Of a stretch of DNA of 37,843 nucleotides, positions 2,595-35,863 are shown piece by piece. This DNA is from Hadesarchaea archaeon (GTDB lineage Archaea > Hadarchaeota > Hadarchaeia > Hadarchaeales > WYZ-LMO6). Every line of letters starts with the position of its first letter. Positions within the stretch are counted from its first letter, which is position 1. Position numbers and translations under genes: made by a program. A model generated the notes under the pieces. It saw nothing but the letters and a program-made list of their open reading frames with translations. It searched no databases and was not told where the DNA came from. Location: NCBI GenBank assembly GCA_029259185.1, contig JAPDJF010000035.1:1-37843 (forward strand), written 5' to 3'.

Positions 2595-3526
2595 ATGAAG
2601 AAAACCAAGGGAATTGAGATAAAGAAGGTCGGCAACAACTACTACGCATACCGAGTCACGATGGTCTGGGACAAACAGCTCAAAAGGCGGAGGAAGATTC
2701 CCCGCTACCTCGGAAAGTGGATCAACGGGAAGATAGTCCGCACCACGAAGCGCAGACTCGGCGGAGTGTATGAGTTCGGGAACATCGCCTAGTCTGGCAG
2801 GAACTGGAAGACAGTGAACTGAACAAGCTGCTCGAGACGCACTTTCCCAACGTGAGTTCTTCAACGCGCTCATCACGACGGACGAAAAGCTCGTCTACGA
2901 CATGTCTGCGATCTTCAGCTACTCCAAGAACCTCAACCTCGCAAAGCTGGTTTCAAGGCGTGACAAGTTCCTCCTCCCGCGCATAAACTTGCTCCTCGCG
3001 TTCTCGAGATTCAAACGACAACCGTGCTACGTGAGGCTTGTTCCGGGCTCCGTGATGAGCGTGAAGACTCTGCGCGTTTTCGTCGAGGAAATCCGCGATA
3101 AATCGGCTTTTCTGATTCTCGACAAGGGATTTCTCGATCGGCACAACCTCGAGGTTCTGGACGGTGCTGGCTTCAACTTCATCCTGCTCTTGCGCCGGAA
3201 CAGCAGGCTCATCGACTACCGGAAGCGGATGTCCGGATGGTTCATCTTCAGGGGCGAGCCATCAAGTGCACTTCCTATCCTCGCGGGCGGTTCTACGTCT
3301 ACCTCTTTGAAGACATCCTCTGAAAGCCACGGAGGAGAACGAGTTCTACAACCAGAAGGCGAGCGGGGCCTCCCGACCTTCCACTTGGAGTGGGCTGGAA
3401 AGATCGCCCTGATCTCAAACGTCAAGCTCAGGCCCCAAGAAGCGTTTCAACTCTACAAGTCCAGAGACGATATCAAGCGAGCCTTCCATGTGTTCAAGAA
3501 CCTGCTCCAGGCCGACACGCCCCACC
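2595..3526 (+). pseudogene. IS1634-like DDE transposase, N-terminal/central part, with stops and frameshifts
   Basis: YYAYRVTMVWDKQLKRRRKIPRYLGK N-terminus, ILDKGF, LYKSRDDIKRAF; stop at 2790-2792; fused to the IS607 fragment after ADTPHL. Confidence 0.8.
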
Positions 3527-3881
3527 TTCCTGTTCTCGTTCACTCCAGAAGCCACGTCTTCGATTACATCGATAACTTTCAACTTGTTTGTTACGCAGTA
3601 GCTCAGCAGCCTTTCTCTCTGCCTGTTCAGGTTCCCGGCATCCTGCTGTTTCTTTGCCGAGACCCTCGCGTAAATGGCCACCCCAAGCGGGCTTCCCATC
3701 AATCTGTCCAGCTCCGCCTTCTCCACGTAACGATGTTTTCCGATTCTCACTCCCTTTATTACTCCTTGATCGATGTACTTCCGTAGGGTATGGGGTGTAA
3801 TCTCGTGTACTTTGCAGCCTCCTTTATTTCCATTAGTGCCATCAATTGTATTAGTATTTGTGAAGTTATCGGCAACTGTTA
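3527..3881 (-). mobile_element. IS607-family left end plus truncated, frameshifted serine recombinase tnpA
   Basis: MEIKEAAKY...HTLRKYIDQG HTH, IYARVSAKKQQDAGNLNRQ catalytic Ser motif, IEDVASGVNENRK; starts right after TGAG, which contains the ychF stop. Confidence 0.85.
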
Positions 3882-10215: not shown

Positions 10216-10260
10216 CTCAATCCCATGTCTCCCTCAGGTGATAAGTTTTTCCCACTATTC

Positions 10261-10567
10261 TGCTTTGCACAAAAATACCGCAAAAGTCAAATGGACCCCA
10301 AAAGGTCGTGGTTGAGTTGGCCTCCAAGCGATAAGGGCTGAACCCTACGGCCTCCGATCCAAGCCGTGTCGACGAGCTTGAAGGAAACCCCCACCCATCG
10401 CCAGCCTTCCAAGCCAAGCACGGCAGTAGTAAGAGGGCAGCCTCGTTTGCTCTCTCAGAGTCCGGTAATCCTTCTCAAGGGCCTGGGCCGAGGGCTTTCG
10501 GCCCTTAGGGGACCCCGAGCCCCCAAGCACGGAAATTGGCCTCAGGGGCTAATTTTTGTGCAAAGCC
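10261..10567 (+). mobile_element. Miniature non-autonomous TIR element of the same family as 34147-35273 (tnpB mostly deleted, internal piece inverted)
   Basis: Perfect 15-bp TIR GCTTTGCACAAAAAT (10262-10276 / 10552-10566); flanking direct repeat CCCACTATTC (10251-10260 / 10567-10576); segments homologous to both ends of 34147-35273. Confidence 0.9.
10492..10567 (+). ncRNA. Putative omegaRNA scaffold at the element right end
   Basis: 58/60 identical to the reverse complement of 34160-34219; stems GGGC-TTTCG-GCCC, AGCCCC...GGGGCT, CCAA...TTGG; position 3' of tnpB. Confidence 0.55.
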
Positions 10568-10570
10568 CCA

Positions 10571-10804
10571 CTATTCAATCACACTCTCAGCGGTTTCAGT
10601 ACACGCGAGCAGGTCGTCGAGTGTTGCGAGCAGGGTTTCTATTTTTCCTTCCATCTCCACCGTGGTGGTAATCGTCCCACCCGAGGTGGTCGTCTTCACT
10701 TTCACCATCCTCGATTGAAGGTTATCGGGTTTCAGCGCTCTCGCTACGGCCCTCGCCGTTTCCGGGTTTTCGTAAGAGCACTCGACTCTCGCTTTGAGTT
10801 TCAC
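10571..10804 (-). CDS. pcc1: KEOPS complex subunit Pcc1
   Basis: 77 aa, ARAVARALKPDN and TLLATLDDLL motifs; context near serS-rps3ae. Confidence 0.8.
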   Translation of the reverse strand: MKLKARVECSYENPETARAVARALKPDNLQSRMVKVKTTTSGGTITTTVEMEGKIETLLATLDDLLACTETAESVIE

Positions 10805-31948: not shown

Positions 31949-34138
31949 ATGCATCGATACAAACACGTATCGGACATAGAGAAGTTAATGTGGAAGCCCT
32001 CCCACGTAAGGAACATCGGGATAGTGGCCCATGTCGATCACGGCAAGACGACCTTGACGGATTCGCTGGTGGCAGCTTCAGGCATAATAAGCTTTGAACT
32101 CGCGGGAGAGCAGCTCTTCACAGATTTTCTGGATATTGAACAGCAGAGAGGGATCACCGTCCAAACTTCGGCTGTGAGTTTGGTTCACACACTCGGGGGG
32201 GAGGAATACTTGATCAACCTCCTCGACACTCCTGGACACGTGGATTTCACGGGAGACGTGACGAGGGCTTTGCGTGCTATCGATGGTGTGGTGGTGGTGA
32301 TGGATGCCGTTGAGGGGGTGATGCCTCAAACGGAAACAGTCGTCCGCCAAGCACTCCAAGAGCGCACGAAGCCCGTGCTTTTCATTAACAAGGTCGACAG
32401 GCTCATAGATGAACTTAAACTCCCTCCCGAAGCCATGCAGGCTAGGTTGGCGAAACTTATCTCTCAGTTCAACGAAATAGTGAGGAAATACGCCCCTCCC
32501 GAACTTGCGGAGGGGTGGCAGGTTAAGGTTGAGGAAGGATCGGTGGCTTTCGGTTCGGCTAAGGAGAAGTGGGCCCTGTCCACATCTCAGATGCGGAAGA
32601 AAGGTATCACCTTCAAGGATATCTTAGGGGCTTCACGGGAGGGGGGAAGAGAAGAACTCGCCAAGCGAACCCCGCTCTACGAGGTGGTTTTGGATATGGT
32701 AATCCGCCACCTTCCAGATCCTAGGGAAGCCCAGCGACTCCGTATCCCGATCCTCTGGAAGGGCGATTTGGAAAGTGAATTAGGAAAAGCGATGCTCTCA
32801 TGCGATCCGAAAGGAAAGGTGTGCATGGTCATCACCGATATAATAGTGGACGAGCAAGCTGGGGTTATATCTACGGGGAGGGTTTTCTCAGGAACGCTGG
32901 AGAAAGGGAAGCCGGTGAGATTGGTTGGGTCGAAGCAGGAGGCCAGAGTTCAGCAAGTTGGGATCTACATAGGACCAAAGAGAGAGATAGTTGAAAAGGT
33001 TCCCGCAGGGAATATCGCGGCGATAATAGGGATGAAGGAGGCTTACGTGGGGGAGACACTCGTGGAAGCCGGGGTCGAGGGGGAAGGATTCGAAGAACTC
33101 AGGTACATAAGTGAACCCGTCGTCACCGTGGCCGTGGAACCGAAGAACTTCCAAGACTTACCCAAGCTCGTGAACTTCCTCAGTAAAATAGCGAGAGAAG
33201 ATCCCAATGTGAGGGTCAAAATAAACGAGGAGACGGGTGAATACTTGGTCTCCGGGATGGGAGAGGTCCACTTGGAGATAGTGGAGTACAAACTCAAGGA
33301 GGCTGGGCTGGAGATCAAAACCTCGGAGCCATTGGTGGTCTACAGAGAGACGATTGTGGGGAAGGCTGGACCCGTCGAGGGTAAGTCCCCGAACAGGCAC
33401 AATCGATTCCAGATAAGTGTGGAGCCCCTAGAGCAAGAGGTTCTGAAGGCTATCGACGAGAAAGTGGTTAAGACCAAGCAGGACAACAAGGAGCGCGCAC
33501 GAATCTTGAGGGATCTCGGCTGGAGCGCGGATGCTGCCAAGAATGTGATGGCGGTGGTTGGGGGGAACATCTTAGTAGACATGACTAAGGGTGTGCAGTA
33601 CATGCGGGAGGTGGAGGACTATATCGTGGAGGCCTTCAGCCAGGTGGCCAACGAGGGTCCCGTAATGAGGGAGCCGATGAGGGGAGTCAAAGTATTGATC
33701 AACGATGCGGTTCTTCACGAGGATTCCGTCCATCGTGGCCCAGCACAGATCATACCCGCGGTTAGACGTCCAATCCAAGCGTGCGTGCTCCTAGCGAATC
33801 CCGTGATCCTCGAACCTCTATTTAAGTTGGAGGTGCATGTCCCAACGGAGTTTATGGGTGGGGCAATAAAGGTGATCCAAGGGAGGAGAGGGAGGATCGT
33901 GGCCATGGAGCCGGAGGGGGAGGCTACTACGGTCATCCGGGCCCTGCTTCCGGTGGCGAACTCCTTCGGTCTTGCGGCAGAAATGCGTTCGGAGACGGAG
34001 GGGAGAGCGATCTGGGCCACCGAGTTCGAACGTTTTGAGCGTTTGCCCCCTGAACTCCAGAGCCAAGTGATCTCGAATACAAGGAAGAGGAAGGGCATGA
34101 GCCCGGAGCCCCCGAAGGCTGAAGAGTTTATGGAGTGA
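31949..34138 (+). CDS. fusA: Translation elongation factor 2
   Basis: AHVDHGKTT, RGIT, DTPGHVDF, NKVD, GMGEVHLE, diphthamide loop HEDSVHRGPAQ. Confidence 0.97.
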   Translation: MHRYKHVSDIEKLMWKPSHVRNIGIVAHVDHGKTTLTDSLVAASGIISFELAGEQLFTDFLDIEQQRGITVQTSAVSLVHTLGGEEYLINLLDTPGHVDFTGDVTRALRAIDGVVVVMDAVEGVMPQTETVVRQALQERTKPVLFINKVDRLIDELKLPPEAMQARLAKLISQFNEIVRKYAPPELAEGWQVKVEEGSVAFGSAKEKWALSTSQMRKKGITFKDILGASREGGREELAKRTPLYEVVLDMVIRHLPDPREAQRLRIPILWKGDLESELGKAMLSCDPKGKVCMVITDIIVDEQAGVISTGRVFSGTLEKGKPVRLVGSKQEARVQQVGIYIGPKREIVEKVPAGNIAAIIGMKEAYVGETLVEAGVEGEGFEELRYISEPVVTVAVEPKNFQDLPKLVNFLSKIAREDPNVRVKINEETGEYLVSGMGEVHLEIVEYKLKEAGLEIKTSEPLVVYRETIVGKAGPVEGKSPNRHNRFQISVEPLEQEVLKAIDEKVVKTKQDNKERARILRDLGWSADAAKNVMAVVGGNILVDMTKGVQYMREVEDYIVEAFSQVANEGPVMREPMRGVKVLINDAVLHEDSVHRGPAQIIPAVRRPIQACVLLANPVILEPLFKLEVHVPTEFMGGAIKVIQGRRGRIVAMEPEGEATTVIRALLPVANSFGLAAEMRSETEGRAIWATEFERFERLPPELQSQVISNTRKRKGMSPEPPKAEEFME

Positions 34139-34146
34139 TCAGCGAG

Positions 34147-35273
34147 GGCTTTGCGCAATTAGCCCCTGAGGCCAATTTTCGTGCTTGGGGGCTCGGAGTC
34201 CCCTAAGGGCCGAAAGCCCCACGCTTCCGTCCCTGGGGCAGTGGCCTAGGAACCTCTTTCCTATGTTTACGGCTCCGTTGAGGTCGGCGTTGTACTCCAG
34301 CCCACACGACGAGCATTTGAAGAAGCCTTGAGAGACCCTTCGTCCTTCGTTTCCACAGCGGTGGCACGTTCGGCTGGTGTACGCCTCGCCGGCGCACGCC
34401 ACGCGGACCCCTTCCGAGCCTTGTACTCGATGTACCTCGACAGCCGGTGGTGGGGCATCGAGTGCAAGATGCGCTTGAGCTTCCCTTTGCCCGCTTGTGG
34501 ATTCCCTTCAGGTCCCCTATCACGATGATCGAGTTTCGCTCCTTAGCTTCGCTGACGATAGCCTTCGAGATCTTGTGGCACAGGTCGTCTATTCGCCGGC
34601 TCCTTCCCGCCTACCCGATCGATCACTTTCAGCAATTTCTTTTCTCCAAGCCGCTTTCGGAGCCACGTAATGACGCCTTATCCCCCTTGCTTCCTTCCCG
34701 TAGAGCTTGGGGGAGGTGATGTTGGCCTCCTTCTGCAGCGCCACAGACGCCGCGAGAAAGCGCTCCCCCAAGTCCACTGCGGGGACGCCGGAGGGATGCA
34801 TCGGCTTGACCCTACGCTTGACCGTGAGGTGGAGGAAGAACCTCCCGTTGCGGTGGACGAGCTGTGAGTCGGAGAGCTCAACCCTACCCGAGGAGAGAAG
34901 CTCCTCGTGGGAGCGCCACATCCGCAGCGGGCACCAGATGCGCATACAAGGTTGAAACGGATACGAAAAACCTGGCGAACCTGTTTCCGGTTTCGGTGAG
35001 CTTGAATGAGTCCTTATCGATGAGGATGGGAGCCTTCCGCCTGTCCCCGGCCTTCCAAGCTAAAGCACGGCAGTAGTAGGAGGCAGCCTCGTTTGCTCTC
35101 TCAGAGTCCGGCCTCTCAAGGGCCTGGGCGCGATCCCACGCTTGGAGGTCCTCCAGAAGCTTGCGCTTGAACCGGGTGAGGCCGTAGAGTTCAGCCCTTA
35201 TCGTCTTGGAGGCCAACATCGAACGTGGTCCGTCGGAACCATTTTAAGTTTTCCGGTATTTTTGTGTAAAGCG
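34147..35273 (-). mobile_element. TIR-bounded, TSD-flanked element whose only cargo is tnpB plus a right-end scaffold
   Basis: Ends ATTTTTGTGTAAAGC (35258-35272) and degenerate GCTTTGCGCAAT (34148-34159); direct repeat GATCAGCGAG at 34137-34146 and 35273-35282. Confidence 0.88.
34220..35219 (-). pseudogene. tnpB: TnpB RNA-guided nuclease, multiply frameshifted (3' limit approximate)
   Basis: Pieces in different frames: MLASKTIRAEL, AVDLGE (RuvC-I), IGDLKG, LSRYIEYKA, EAYTSRTCHRC, FKCSSC, NADLNGAVNI (RuvC-III). Confidence 0.92.
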
Positions 35274-35329
35274 ATCAGCGAGAAAACACCTTTTTAAAGC
35301 CCCCGAGTTCAGTTCCCATAAGGAAGAAG

Positions 35330-35863
35330 ATGGAGGCTTTAGCGAAAGCCCGGCTCTACAAGGATAAGGCGGTGGTCTGGGAAGAGGGTCAAGCCAACCA
35401 GCTGTATCAGCGAGGAGTTTTCGGAAAGCCATTGAGTGGGGGAAAACTTCAGCTCGCTCCAGTTGAAGTTCTTTACTTGGTGGAGAACGGAAAGTTGGAG
35501 GTGGTGGAGGGAAAGTCGGAGAGACCGATTTCCTTCGAGAAGTTGTGGGCGAGGTTCTCGAAGTCCGATCCAGATCTCATGCTGAAGTACAGGGTGTACT
35601 CAGACCTTAGATCGAGGGGATACGTGGTAAAAACCGGACTCAAGTTTGGTGCTCACTTCAGGGTCTATGGGAGAGGAGAAAAGCCAGGGGAGGTCCACTC
35701 AAGATACCTCGTTCACGCGATACCGGAAGGGACGAAGTTCACCCCTTCCGAACTCGCCAGGGCTGTGAGGTTAGCCCATTCGGTCAGGAAGACGATGTTT
35801 TTTGCCGTAGTTGACGATGAGGGAGATGTGACTTATTACTCCCTCAGGAGGGAAAAGCCGTGA
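35330..35863 (+). CDS. endA: tRNA-splicing endonuclease, short single-unit type
   Basis: VYSDLRSRGY, KTGLKFG, FRVY...HS, AHSVRK (Tyr/His/Lys triad present); TTTTTAAA box at 35291-35298. Confidence 0.93.
   Translation: MEALAKARLYKDKAVVWEEGQANQLYQRGVFGKPLSGGKLQLAPVEVLYLVENGKLEVVEGKSERPISFEKLWARFSKSDPDLMLKYRVYSDLRSRGYVVKTGLKFGAHFRVYGRGEKPGEVHSRYLVHAIPEGTKFTPSELARAVRLAHSVRKTMFFAVVDDEGDVTYYSLRREKP

Follow-up and report, generated by a model that had tools for sequence, protein, structure and literature searches.

A 37,843-nucleotide stretch of DNA from a Hadesarchaea archaeon, hereafter the window, carries a decayed tnpB gene between fusA and an endA-like gene, and our analysis suggests that the element bearing it is probably a non-autonomous DDE (cut-and-paste-type) transposon with the TnpB gene and a guide-RNA region as cargo. 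The preliminary description of the window had separated this element from the IS200/IS605 and IS607 types and had proposed that a DDE enzyme supplied in trans mobilises it as a non-autonomous tnpB transposon. The first point held up: terminal inverted repeats (TIRs) are found at both ends and an exact 9-bp target-site duplication (TSD) flanks 7 of the 16 copies with two ends, and IS200/IS605 and IS607 elements have neither TIRs nor TSDs according to the parts of the literature covered here and below (PMC13565253, PMC3119063). The second is supported by long copies whose only content is tnpB and by a terminus shared with 9-bp-TSD elements that hold other cargo. The window is the whole of contig C15 of an archaeal metagenome-assembled genome (MAG; G000 below) of 1.27 Mb in 54 contigs, 94.9% complete, and the public runs that contain the stretch are labelled as hydrothermal-vent or marine metagenomes. 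For comparison, 65 genomes of the same order were used, whose members are labelled G006, G019, G023, G029 and so on.

The window holds two copies of the element, both at the positions where the preliminary description had placed them and with the inverted ends and flanking repeats it reported, the exact flanking 10-mers GATCAGCGAG and CCCACTATTC included. Copy 1, the decayed tnpB element (34147-35273), sits between the fusA stop codon (open reading frame 31949-34138) and the endA-like gene (35330-35863); copy 2 is a miniature. Throughout, LE denotes the end at the tnpB start and RE the end at the tnpB 3' end, and the 16 two-ended copies in G000 were oriented in this way. Ends were located with blastn-short, and TSDs were scored in these copies as matches over 9 bases. 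The family ends are 16-bp TIRs of the form (G/Y)GCTTTGCACAAAAAT, with the LE consensus Y+GCTTTGCACAAAAATACCG and an RE terminating in ...ATTTTTGTGCAAAGC+C. The LE of copy 2 reads T+GCTTTGCACAAAAAT (10261-10276) and its RE occupies 10552-10567, and the RE of copy 1 has a 3-base deletion and one substitution relative to the family consensus. The duplication had been given as 9 or 10 bp. As the base after the RE motif GCAAAGC is C in 15/16 copies, it is the element's own, and the duplication is 9 bp, not 10. Within the window alone the 15-mer is weak evidence, with three matches, a count equalled in 3/100 shuffles. Copy 2 retains roughly 95 nt at the LE and, from the RE region, the last three hairpins; it is a miniature inverted-repeat transposable element (MITE) in being short, non-coding, bounded by TIRs and a TSD, multi-copy and derived from a longer element.

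A blastn search of the genome with both window copies, a check proposed in the preliminary description, found the family on 17 of the 54 contigs. Three copies are long, at about 1.13-1.16 kb (C1:38407-39561, C4:33643-34772 and copy 1), and the others are internal-deletion derivatives of about 150-640 bp or are truncated. Exact 9/9 duplications flank the copies C1a, C1b, C1c, C4 and C6 as well as both window copies; C11a scores 8/9, C14a matches with one indel, C7 scores 6/9, and six copies score at most 4/9. The expectation that other copies would also be flanked by duplications was thus borne out for some of them and failed for the last six. A single exact 9/9 match has a chance of about 4e-6, and about 6e-5 exact matches are expected among 16 copies. 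Open frames were read in the three long copies (the partial or truncated copies on C34, C16, C3, C31 and C13 were left out). Each has tnpB as its sole content, with neither the Y1 nor the serine tnpA that the preliminary description had named as a mark of the classical elements.

The terminus itself is widespread in the order. A 16-mer, GGCTTTGCACAAAAAT, was found with at most two mismatches in 47/65 genomes, mostly as GGCTTTGCACAWWAAT, and the reversed control pattern gave counts near zero. Among the loci fetched from relatives, three inverted pairs have exact 9-bp TSDs and contents other than tnpB. The pair in G046 (1464 bp) encloses an IS5-like transposase remnant (its C-terminal 120 aa) that lies within 12 nt of one of the TIRs, and that in G049 spans 1046 bp. 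The third (G006:C58:2717-5901; L127:518-3702), of 3185 bp and with the exact TSD CTCCAGATG, encodes a restriction-modification methylase of 991 aa that is Eco57I/MmeI-like. Further solo ends in relatives adjoin an SMC_N/AAA_23 protein and a predicted pPIWI-associated nuclease, and the TIR family may be a carrier of defence genes. Homologues of the G046-type transposase are present in 12/65 genomes and none was found in G000, and in 5/9 loci examined an intact IS5-like gene of 345-423 aa ends about 20-25 nt from such a terminus. The IS5-like transposases beside this terminus include those of G019 (349 aa) and G051 (345-350 aa). An autonomous relative on G029:C3 encodes a 377-aa IS5-family transposase (NF033579, 2e-24) and has the TIR GGGCTTGGGACAAAAAT and the TSD GGATAATTC; related archaeal transposases fall below the NCBIfam IS5 cut-off (86.5 vs 140 bits). 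A DDE transposase bounded by the same TIRs, which the preliminary description had suggested looking for, was not found in G000, where DDE_Tnp_1 (PF01609) matches only twice: one hit, in the window, is an unrelated IS1634/IS4-like remnant, and the other is the IS1182 gene of the 1.4-kb contig C51. From the sequences of the ends and these profile matches, we conclude that the window family is best classed as an IS5/IS903-like non-autonomous element and that the acting enzyme is probably absent from the assembly of this MAG.

Some termini were observed in other arrangements (L135:1422-1466, L145:1405-1443, L136:1404-1444). In G051 and G045 two of them face each other directly beside an IS5-like transposase gene, in the order ...CAAAGCC, 9 nt, GGCTTTGC..., with both elements apparently on one 9-bp target, whereas the two termini in G019 stand back to back as a 39-bp pair. 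Another end type, GCTTTGGGACAAAATTACCCC, found at G000:C1:114714 and C17:24541, resembles the terminus of the G029:C3 insertion sequence (IS) and adjoins a Y1 TnpA remnant in G000 (C1:115323-115517).

The termini had been compared with IS1595/IS6-type ends in the preliminary description. This does not apply to the window family, which is IS5/IS903-like and not IS1595-like (DDE_Tnp_IS1595 has no match in the two genomes searched, G000 and G029), but the IS6 part of the comparison fits a sister family in G029. This genome, of another genus, encodes the nearest TnpB (63% identical) in an element of 1177 bp whose 14-bp TIRs, GGTTCTCTTCGGAA, are perfect and whose 9-bp TSD, TAACTAGCC, is exact. Five miniatures (about 285 bp) in this genome share those ends. 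Of the six copies, four have an exact 9-bp TSD, one matches at 8/9 and one is ambiguous. DDE_Tnp_IS240 has one match each in G000 and G029. That in G000 (C4:8346-9533; L099:1202-2389) is a nearly intact IS6-family IS of about 1.19 kb, with an open frame of 293 aa without internal stops (DDE_Tnp_IS240, 5e-12; NF033587 for IS6, 6e-27, under the cut-off yet the best match), 25-26-nt TIRs and an exact 9-bp TSD GATCGTAGC. The LE of the G029 tnpB element shares 21/25 terminal bases with this IS, the first 17 included, so that the sister tnpB family carries IS6-type ends. The IS6-type gene of G029 itself (C11) was rejected as a partner, being a different IS without these ends.

Could the IS6-family transposase on C4, and not an IS5/IS903-like enzyme, have moved the window family as well? 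It belongs to the sole DDE element in the MAG with clean TIRs, a 9-bp TSD and a stop-free open frame, both TIR types begin with GG, and the sister tnpB family uses ends of the C4 type. However, the two TIRs agree at only about 5 of the first 10 bases, and in relatives it is with IS5-family genes that the GGCTTTGCACA terminus is associated, which makes this improbable. The C4 IS was also observed to have a zinc-ribbon-like N-terminal stretch in another frame and a G+C content seemingly above that of its surroundings, and fragments, together with a miniature of about 200 bp with the same ends, are found on C2, C3, C26 and C33.

Of the three long copies read, only that on C1 has an intact tnpB (361 aa; G000:C1:38425-39507), whose product matches Pfam Cas12f1-like_TNB (2.6e-23) and NCBIfam guided_TnpB (8.3e-50), with OrfB_IS605 slightly below the cut-off; the gene in the window is a pseudogene. 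The RuvC and zinc-ribbon motifs of a TnpB are present (the D in AVDLGE, CxxC...CxxC and NADLNGA), and the canonical RuvC-II Glu is replaced by Gly (IVIGDL / IGN) throughout the clade, a change not confined to the TIR subclade. Rearranged active sites of this kind (RIIr type) have been described (PMC10691335, section 8). TnpB matches at E<=1e-20 are found in 19/65 genomes of the order. Every more distant relative that could be delimited, at 40-53% identity, lies in a classical IS605-type element; these form three multi-copy subfamilies in G023 (9 copies), with partial copies in G006 and G052, and have hairpin ends, an RE terminating in ...GGTAGTTCAC, and neither TIR nor TSD. Twelve tnpB loci were scanned for TIRs with a 9-bp TSD, and only the G000 and G029 elements were positive. 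Widening the search from the order to the class returned the same 65 genomes. A collection-wide scan of genome contigs with TnpB gave four distant loci, and the metagenome scan gave two short contigs, which repeat the insertion sites of C15 and C1.

The hairpin-ended elements of these closest outgroup TnpBs raise the alternative that the window family is itself of the IS200/IS605 type, moved as single-stranded DNA by a Y1 (HUH) TnpA, in which case the TIR would be a by-product of the hairpin and TTTN the Y1 target. A subterminal hairpin with a short tail at the RE, a T-rich motif on the LE side only, as in IS605, three copies with a common left 9-mer and unrelated right flanks, and Y1 remnants in the genome would all agree with it. 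Yet Y1 transposition leaves no duplication, and the exact repeats at seven of the 16 copies are site-specific. The LE lacks the hairpin of the RE and bears an inverted copy of the RE tip instead. The Y1_Tnp Pfam search of G000 gave four matches, of which the two above the cut-off are both broken or partial, and in relatives these ends, with 9-bp TSDs, enclose cargo other than TnpB. We therefore regard movement by a Y1 enzyme as very unlikely. An intact IS607-type serine recombinase TnpA was also observed in this genome (G000:C5:51412-52023, L018:613-1224; 204 aa, Resolvase 8.9e-29), followed by a truncated, unrelated tnpB; it belongs to an element unrelated to the TIR family.

The right end appears to serve two purposes. 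In both the G000 and the G029 element the final 143 nt are predicted to fold into the same four hairpins (z = -3.5 and -5.2), and when 4 right ends from G000 are aligned with 6 from G029 there are 32 consensus pairs, 13 of them with a compensatory change; an Rfam search of the right end matched no family. Miniatures retain the hairpin region, with three hairpins in G000 and four in G029. The TIR is made up of the 3' arm of the last hairpin and a 6-nt tail, and the conserved four-hairpin structure stops 6 nt from the RE. Judged from these predicted folds, the transposase-binding repeat seems to be accommodated within a conserved guide-RNA-like scaffold. The terminal hairpin, which contains the TIR, has a wholly different sequence in the G000 and G029 families and has kept its pairing, which argues that the putative guide RNA has been under selection after the switch of end type.

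A TTT motif stands immediately 5' of the LE-side 9-mer in 14/16 G000 copies (TTTN in 13 and with a one-base shift in 1), or in 12/14 if the three copies with a common flank are counted once, over a genome background of 3.4% (binomial 2e-16). Its mirror at the RE side, judged by eye, occurs in none of the nine copies with a TSD of at least 8/9 or an indel match (Fisher LE vs RE, 7e-5). In the G029 family the LE side is T-rich in 5/6 copies and the mirror motif is found in 0/5, again by eye. The target motif of IS903 is WTTYA-N9-TRAAW, with TTY favoured outside the TSD (PMC2577343, Table 1). It is quite conceivable, if somewhat short of probable, that the LE-side TTT is both the preferred half-site of the transposase and the target-adjacent motif (TAM) of TnpB. 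For the DDE-5 branch, a TA motif located 8 bp upstream of the end is in print (PMC10691335, supplementary information), so the general idea of a fixed end-proximal motif is not new.

The phasing of TTT beside the LE-side TSD in both sister families, which have TIRs of different DDE types, could also mean that TnpB and its RNA act in insertion, through the choice of a TAM-adjacent site or by integration with the RuvC fold, and that no separate transposase is needed. In the same direction, no cognate transposase was found in G000 or G029 for its own family, and the TIR sequence co-varies with the RNA hairpin. On the other side, cleavage by TnpB is known to take place 15-21 bp away from the TAM rather than at 0 and 9 bp, and we know of no precedent for TnpB-phased or TnpB-catalysed insertion. 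Elements that lack TnpB, and carry a transposase or other cargo instead, have the same TIRs, and most copies are TnpB-less miniatures or pseudogenes. Insertion by TnpB is thus hard to sustain.

Two independent metagenome contigs reproduce the LE junctions of the insertions on C15 and C1, and in 4/4 public runs the window site is occupied at both junctions; no contig joining 34146 to 35274 was found in those four runs, which proves nothing. In 5/5 same-family genomes fusA is next to endA, and the short spacer between them holds no element. At 76-78% identity this spacer cannot show a single copy of the 9-mer; for the flanking genes overall, the nearest genomes are only 74-78% identical. At the site of copy 2 only the right flank aligned in 4/4 same-family genomes, and blastn of the flanks within the genome gave no paralogous empty site. 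The preliminary description had pointed to empty junctions with a single repeat copy, and none was recovered at the fusA-endA or the copy 2 site. Chance or assembly artefacts of a repeat-rich MAG, which the 127-base overlaps between contigs, the repeat content and the shuffle count in the window could bring to mind, can be dismissed for practical purposes, since seven independent exact 9-mers lie at different loci, against the small number expected by chance, and the C15 and C1 junctions are independently reproduced.

Several observations weigh against a DDE-type element moved in trans. No empty site was recovered in same-family genomes, public runs or within-genome flanks, and the cognate IS5-like transposase was not found in a 95%-complete MAG (PF01609 profile; tblastn with the G019 transposase), so that the trans-mobilisation step is inferred. 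At the intact IS5-like genes of G019, G051, G045 and G049 the opposite terminus was not found, and homology runs on into a small upstream gene instead of a second TIR; with only one terminus at these genes, no complete autonomous IS with the exact terminus was found. Six of the 16 copies are without a TSD. Three of these (C13, C14b and C23a) have an identical LE flank, TTTC GAACCTTTA C, that extends over about 16-20 nt (G000:C13:32183-32202, C14:36930-36949, C23:8811-8830), next to unrelated RE flanks. This pattern looks more like the IS605-style carriage of left-flank bases, or gene conversion, and the candidates for the common flank are gene conversion into TTT-sharing flanks or recombination between copies. 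The RE flank of C20 opens with the 9-mer GAACCTTAG, which is similar to the common LE flank, and the RE flank of C11b resembles the LE flank of C33. TTT is found at the same position in 10/42 family ends of relatives without a known TnpB (Fisher vs the LE count, 7e-5), and together with the TTY preference of IS903 this means that the motif may reflect the target choice of the transposase rather than a TAM. Finally, the copies are 3-17% divergent, so the family may be extinct.

If the element is a DDE transposon with TnpB as cargo, as we favour, an IS5/IS903-like transposase made elsewhere would bind both repeats, excise the element and insert it across a 9-bp staggered cut, and this transposase would now be either absent from this genome or not assembled. 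The TnpB lineage would derive from ordinary hairpin-ended IS605-type elements, and in one subclade the right end would have been remodelled in such a way that the transposase-binding repeat doubles as the 3' arm and tail of the last guide-RNA hairpin. With the LE-side TTT as the TAM, an empty site would read TAM, duplication and right flank, and the copy's own guide RNA would target that site. TnpB could still cut unoccupied alleles in this manner, favouring the retention or fixation of the element. We offer only tentatively, and with some doubt, the fuller proposal that TnpB and the guide RNA form a homing/drive module of the DDE transposon, with the TIR in the guide hairpin, the 9-bp TSD as the first 9 nt of the guide and TTT as the TAM.

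The preliminary description mentioned that associations between TnpB and DDE transposases had been noted in surveys, and elements of this kind have indeed been in print since 2023 (PMC10691335). TnpB is tied to DDE transposases in several branches; inverted terminal repeats are present in all six (DDE-1 to DDE-6), and solo TnpBs that lie between nearly identical ends suggest mobilisation in trans (Altae-Tran et al. 2023, PNAS, PMC10691335). The family studied here resembles DDE-1 to DDE-6 in that tnpB lies inside an inverted-repeat element with its 3' end near one end. It resembles the solo copies of the DDE branches in having tnpB without a transposase and the ends of transposase-bearing elements, with movement in trans deduced from these. 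It differs from the printed branches in its IS903-like ends with a 9-bp TSD, in its IS6-type sister and in that all copies lack a transposase. The DDE type in the main text of PMC10691335 is IS630, and ISL2, IS630 and IS1031 are named with TnpB in a 2026 review, which calls the TnpB-DDE link relatively weak and such elements rare in prokaryotes (PMC13565253). The parts of these two papers covered here make no mention of a TnpB with IS6-type or IS903-type ends; the Zenodo tables, which lie outside this scope, may hold the lineage. Beyond what these texts describe are the sister TnpB lineages in two DDE end-types, IS903-like and IS6-type, the TIR embedded in a guide-RNA-like hairpin, with covariation, and the one-sided TAM-like motif that abuts the duplication.

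Among known systems, IS903 (IS5 family, IS903 group) is similar in its TIR, which opens with GGCTTTG (the first seven bases) followed by an A/T-rich stretch, in its 9-bp duplication and in the T-rich motif directly outside it; the repeats of IS903B begin with GGCTTTG and its direct repeat is 9 bp (PMC10569121). The window family differs from IS903 in having no internal transposase, in the one-sided target motif and in the archaeal host. The likeness to the IS6 family (IS26/IS240 type) applies to the sister family only, whose termini begin with GGTTCT, with repeats of about 25 bp common to the IS and the tnpB element, and the IS with those ends encodes a DDE_Tnp_IS240-type transposase. IS6 elements are described with an 8-bp duplication, whereas it is 9 bp here, and the ends of the window family are not of the IS6 type. 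The IS200/IS605 elements, the tnpB-only elements of the IS1341 type and their protein-less derivatives, the palindrome-associated transposable elements (PATEs; PMC3119063), have in common with our family the TnpB family itself, with close relatives in the same order, a structured 3' region (here a putative guide-RNA region) and miniatures that retain the ends. They differ in their hairpin ends without TIRs or TSDs, where our family has TIRs, 9-bp TSDs and a hairpin at the RE only. Fanzor1 proteins in eukaryotic TIR transposons, such as MuDR-type elements with 9-bp TSDs, are likewise TnpB homologues that are passengers in non-autonomous DDE-type elements known by their TIRs and TSDs, but they are eukaryotic and larger and travel with other transposase superfamilies (Bao and Jurka 2013, PMC3627910).

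A number of other mobile-element traces were observed. Two of them are near thermosome (Cpn60/TCP1) genes: three tandem TTGCACAYAAAT motifs that open with the TIR sequence about 100 nt upstream of one gene (G000:C26:6504-6560), and, immediately before the other paralogue, a tnpB-family miniature of 146 bp (G000:C11:22758-22901). These may be an end remnant, or a repeat reused as a regulatory site. In the window, positions 2902-3786 hold a degenerate IS1634/IS4-like DDE transposase frame (NF033559, 2.8e-16), which was rejected as the partner enzyme, being unrelated to the partner family. On the opposite strand it is overlapped (3415-3750, minus) by part of an IS607-type serine recombinase, with another such fragment at 1763-2215, and these sequences are members of the largest repeat family of the genome (119 intervals, single linkage). 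Contig C51 (1358 bp) consists entirely of a single G+C-rich IS1182-family transposase gene (439 aa; NF033551, 9.4e-95); it has no repeat overlap with other contigs and may be a binning contaminant or a collapsed multi-copy IS. The features of the two window copies are listed in Table 1.

Table 1. Coordinates of the two element copies and their flanks in the window (element orientation as strand)
Feature	Positions	Strand	Remark
Copy 1 TSD, RE side, ATCAGCGAG	34138..34146	.	overlaps the final base of the fusA stop codon
Copy 1 RE TIR, degenerate, GGCTTTGCGCAAT	34147..34159	-	degenerate vs family consensus
Structured 3' region, putative omega-RNA scaffold, four hairpins	34147..34256	-	13/32 pairs compensatory, two families
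tnpB pseudogene, several frames	34187..35219	-	2 TGA and 3 TAG stops inside the match
Copy 1 LE TIR, C+GCTTTACACAAAAAT	35258..35273	-	
Copy 1 TSD, LE side, ATCAGCGAG	35274..35282	.	
TTTT on the element strand, directly 5' of the LE-side TSD	35283..35286	-	candidate TAM or transposase half-site
TTTC directly 5' of the copy 2 LE-side TSD	10248..10251	+	
Copy 2 TSD, LE side, CCACTATTC	10252..10260	.	
Copy 2, 307-bp MITE-like internal-deletion derivative	10261..10567	+	perfect 15-bp TIRs
Copy 2 TSD, RE side, CCACTATTC	10568..10576	.	

For annotation, these results mean that tnpB copies bounded by TIRs and TSDs should not be placed under IS200/IS605. The TIR elements are general cargo carriers in this order of vent archaea, one of them with a restriction-modification gene. 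IS605 and IS607 elements excise without a scar, and TnpB is believed to help them persist; the two sister TnpB lineages, freshly derived from hairpin-ended IS605-type elements, would be a compact natural example in which one can ask whether RNA-guided homing still works when the transposon leaves a duplication. If the tentative homing module is real, only correctly oriented insertions next to TTT could cut unoccupied alleles and spread in the polyploid archaeal cell, and the miniatures would be guide-only hitch-hikers.

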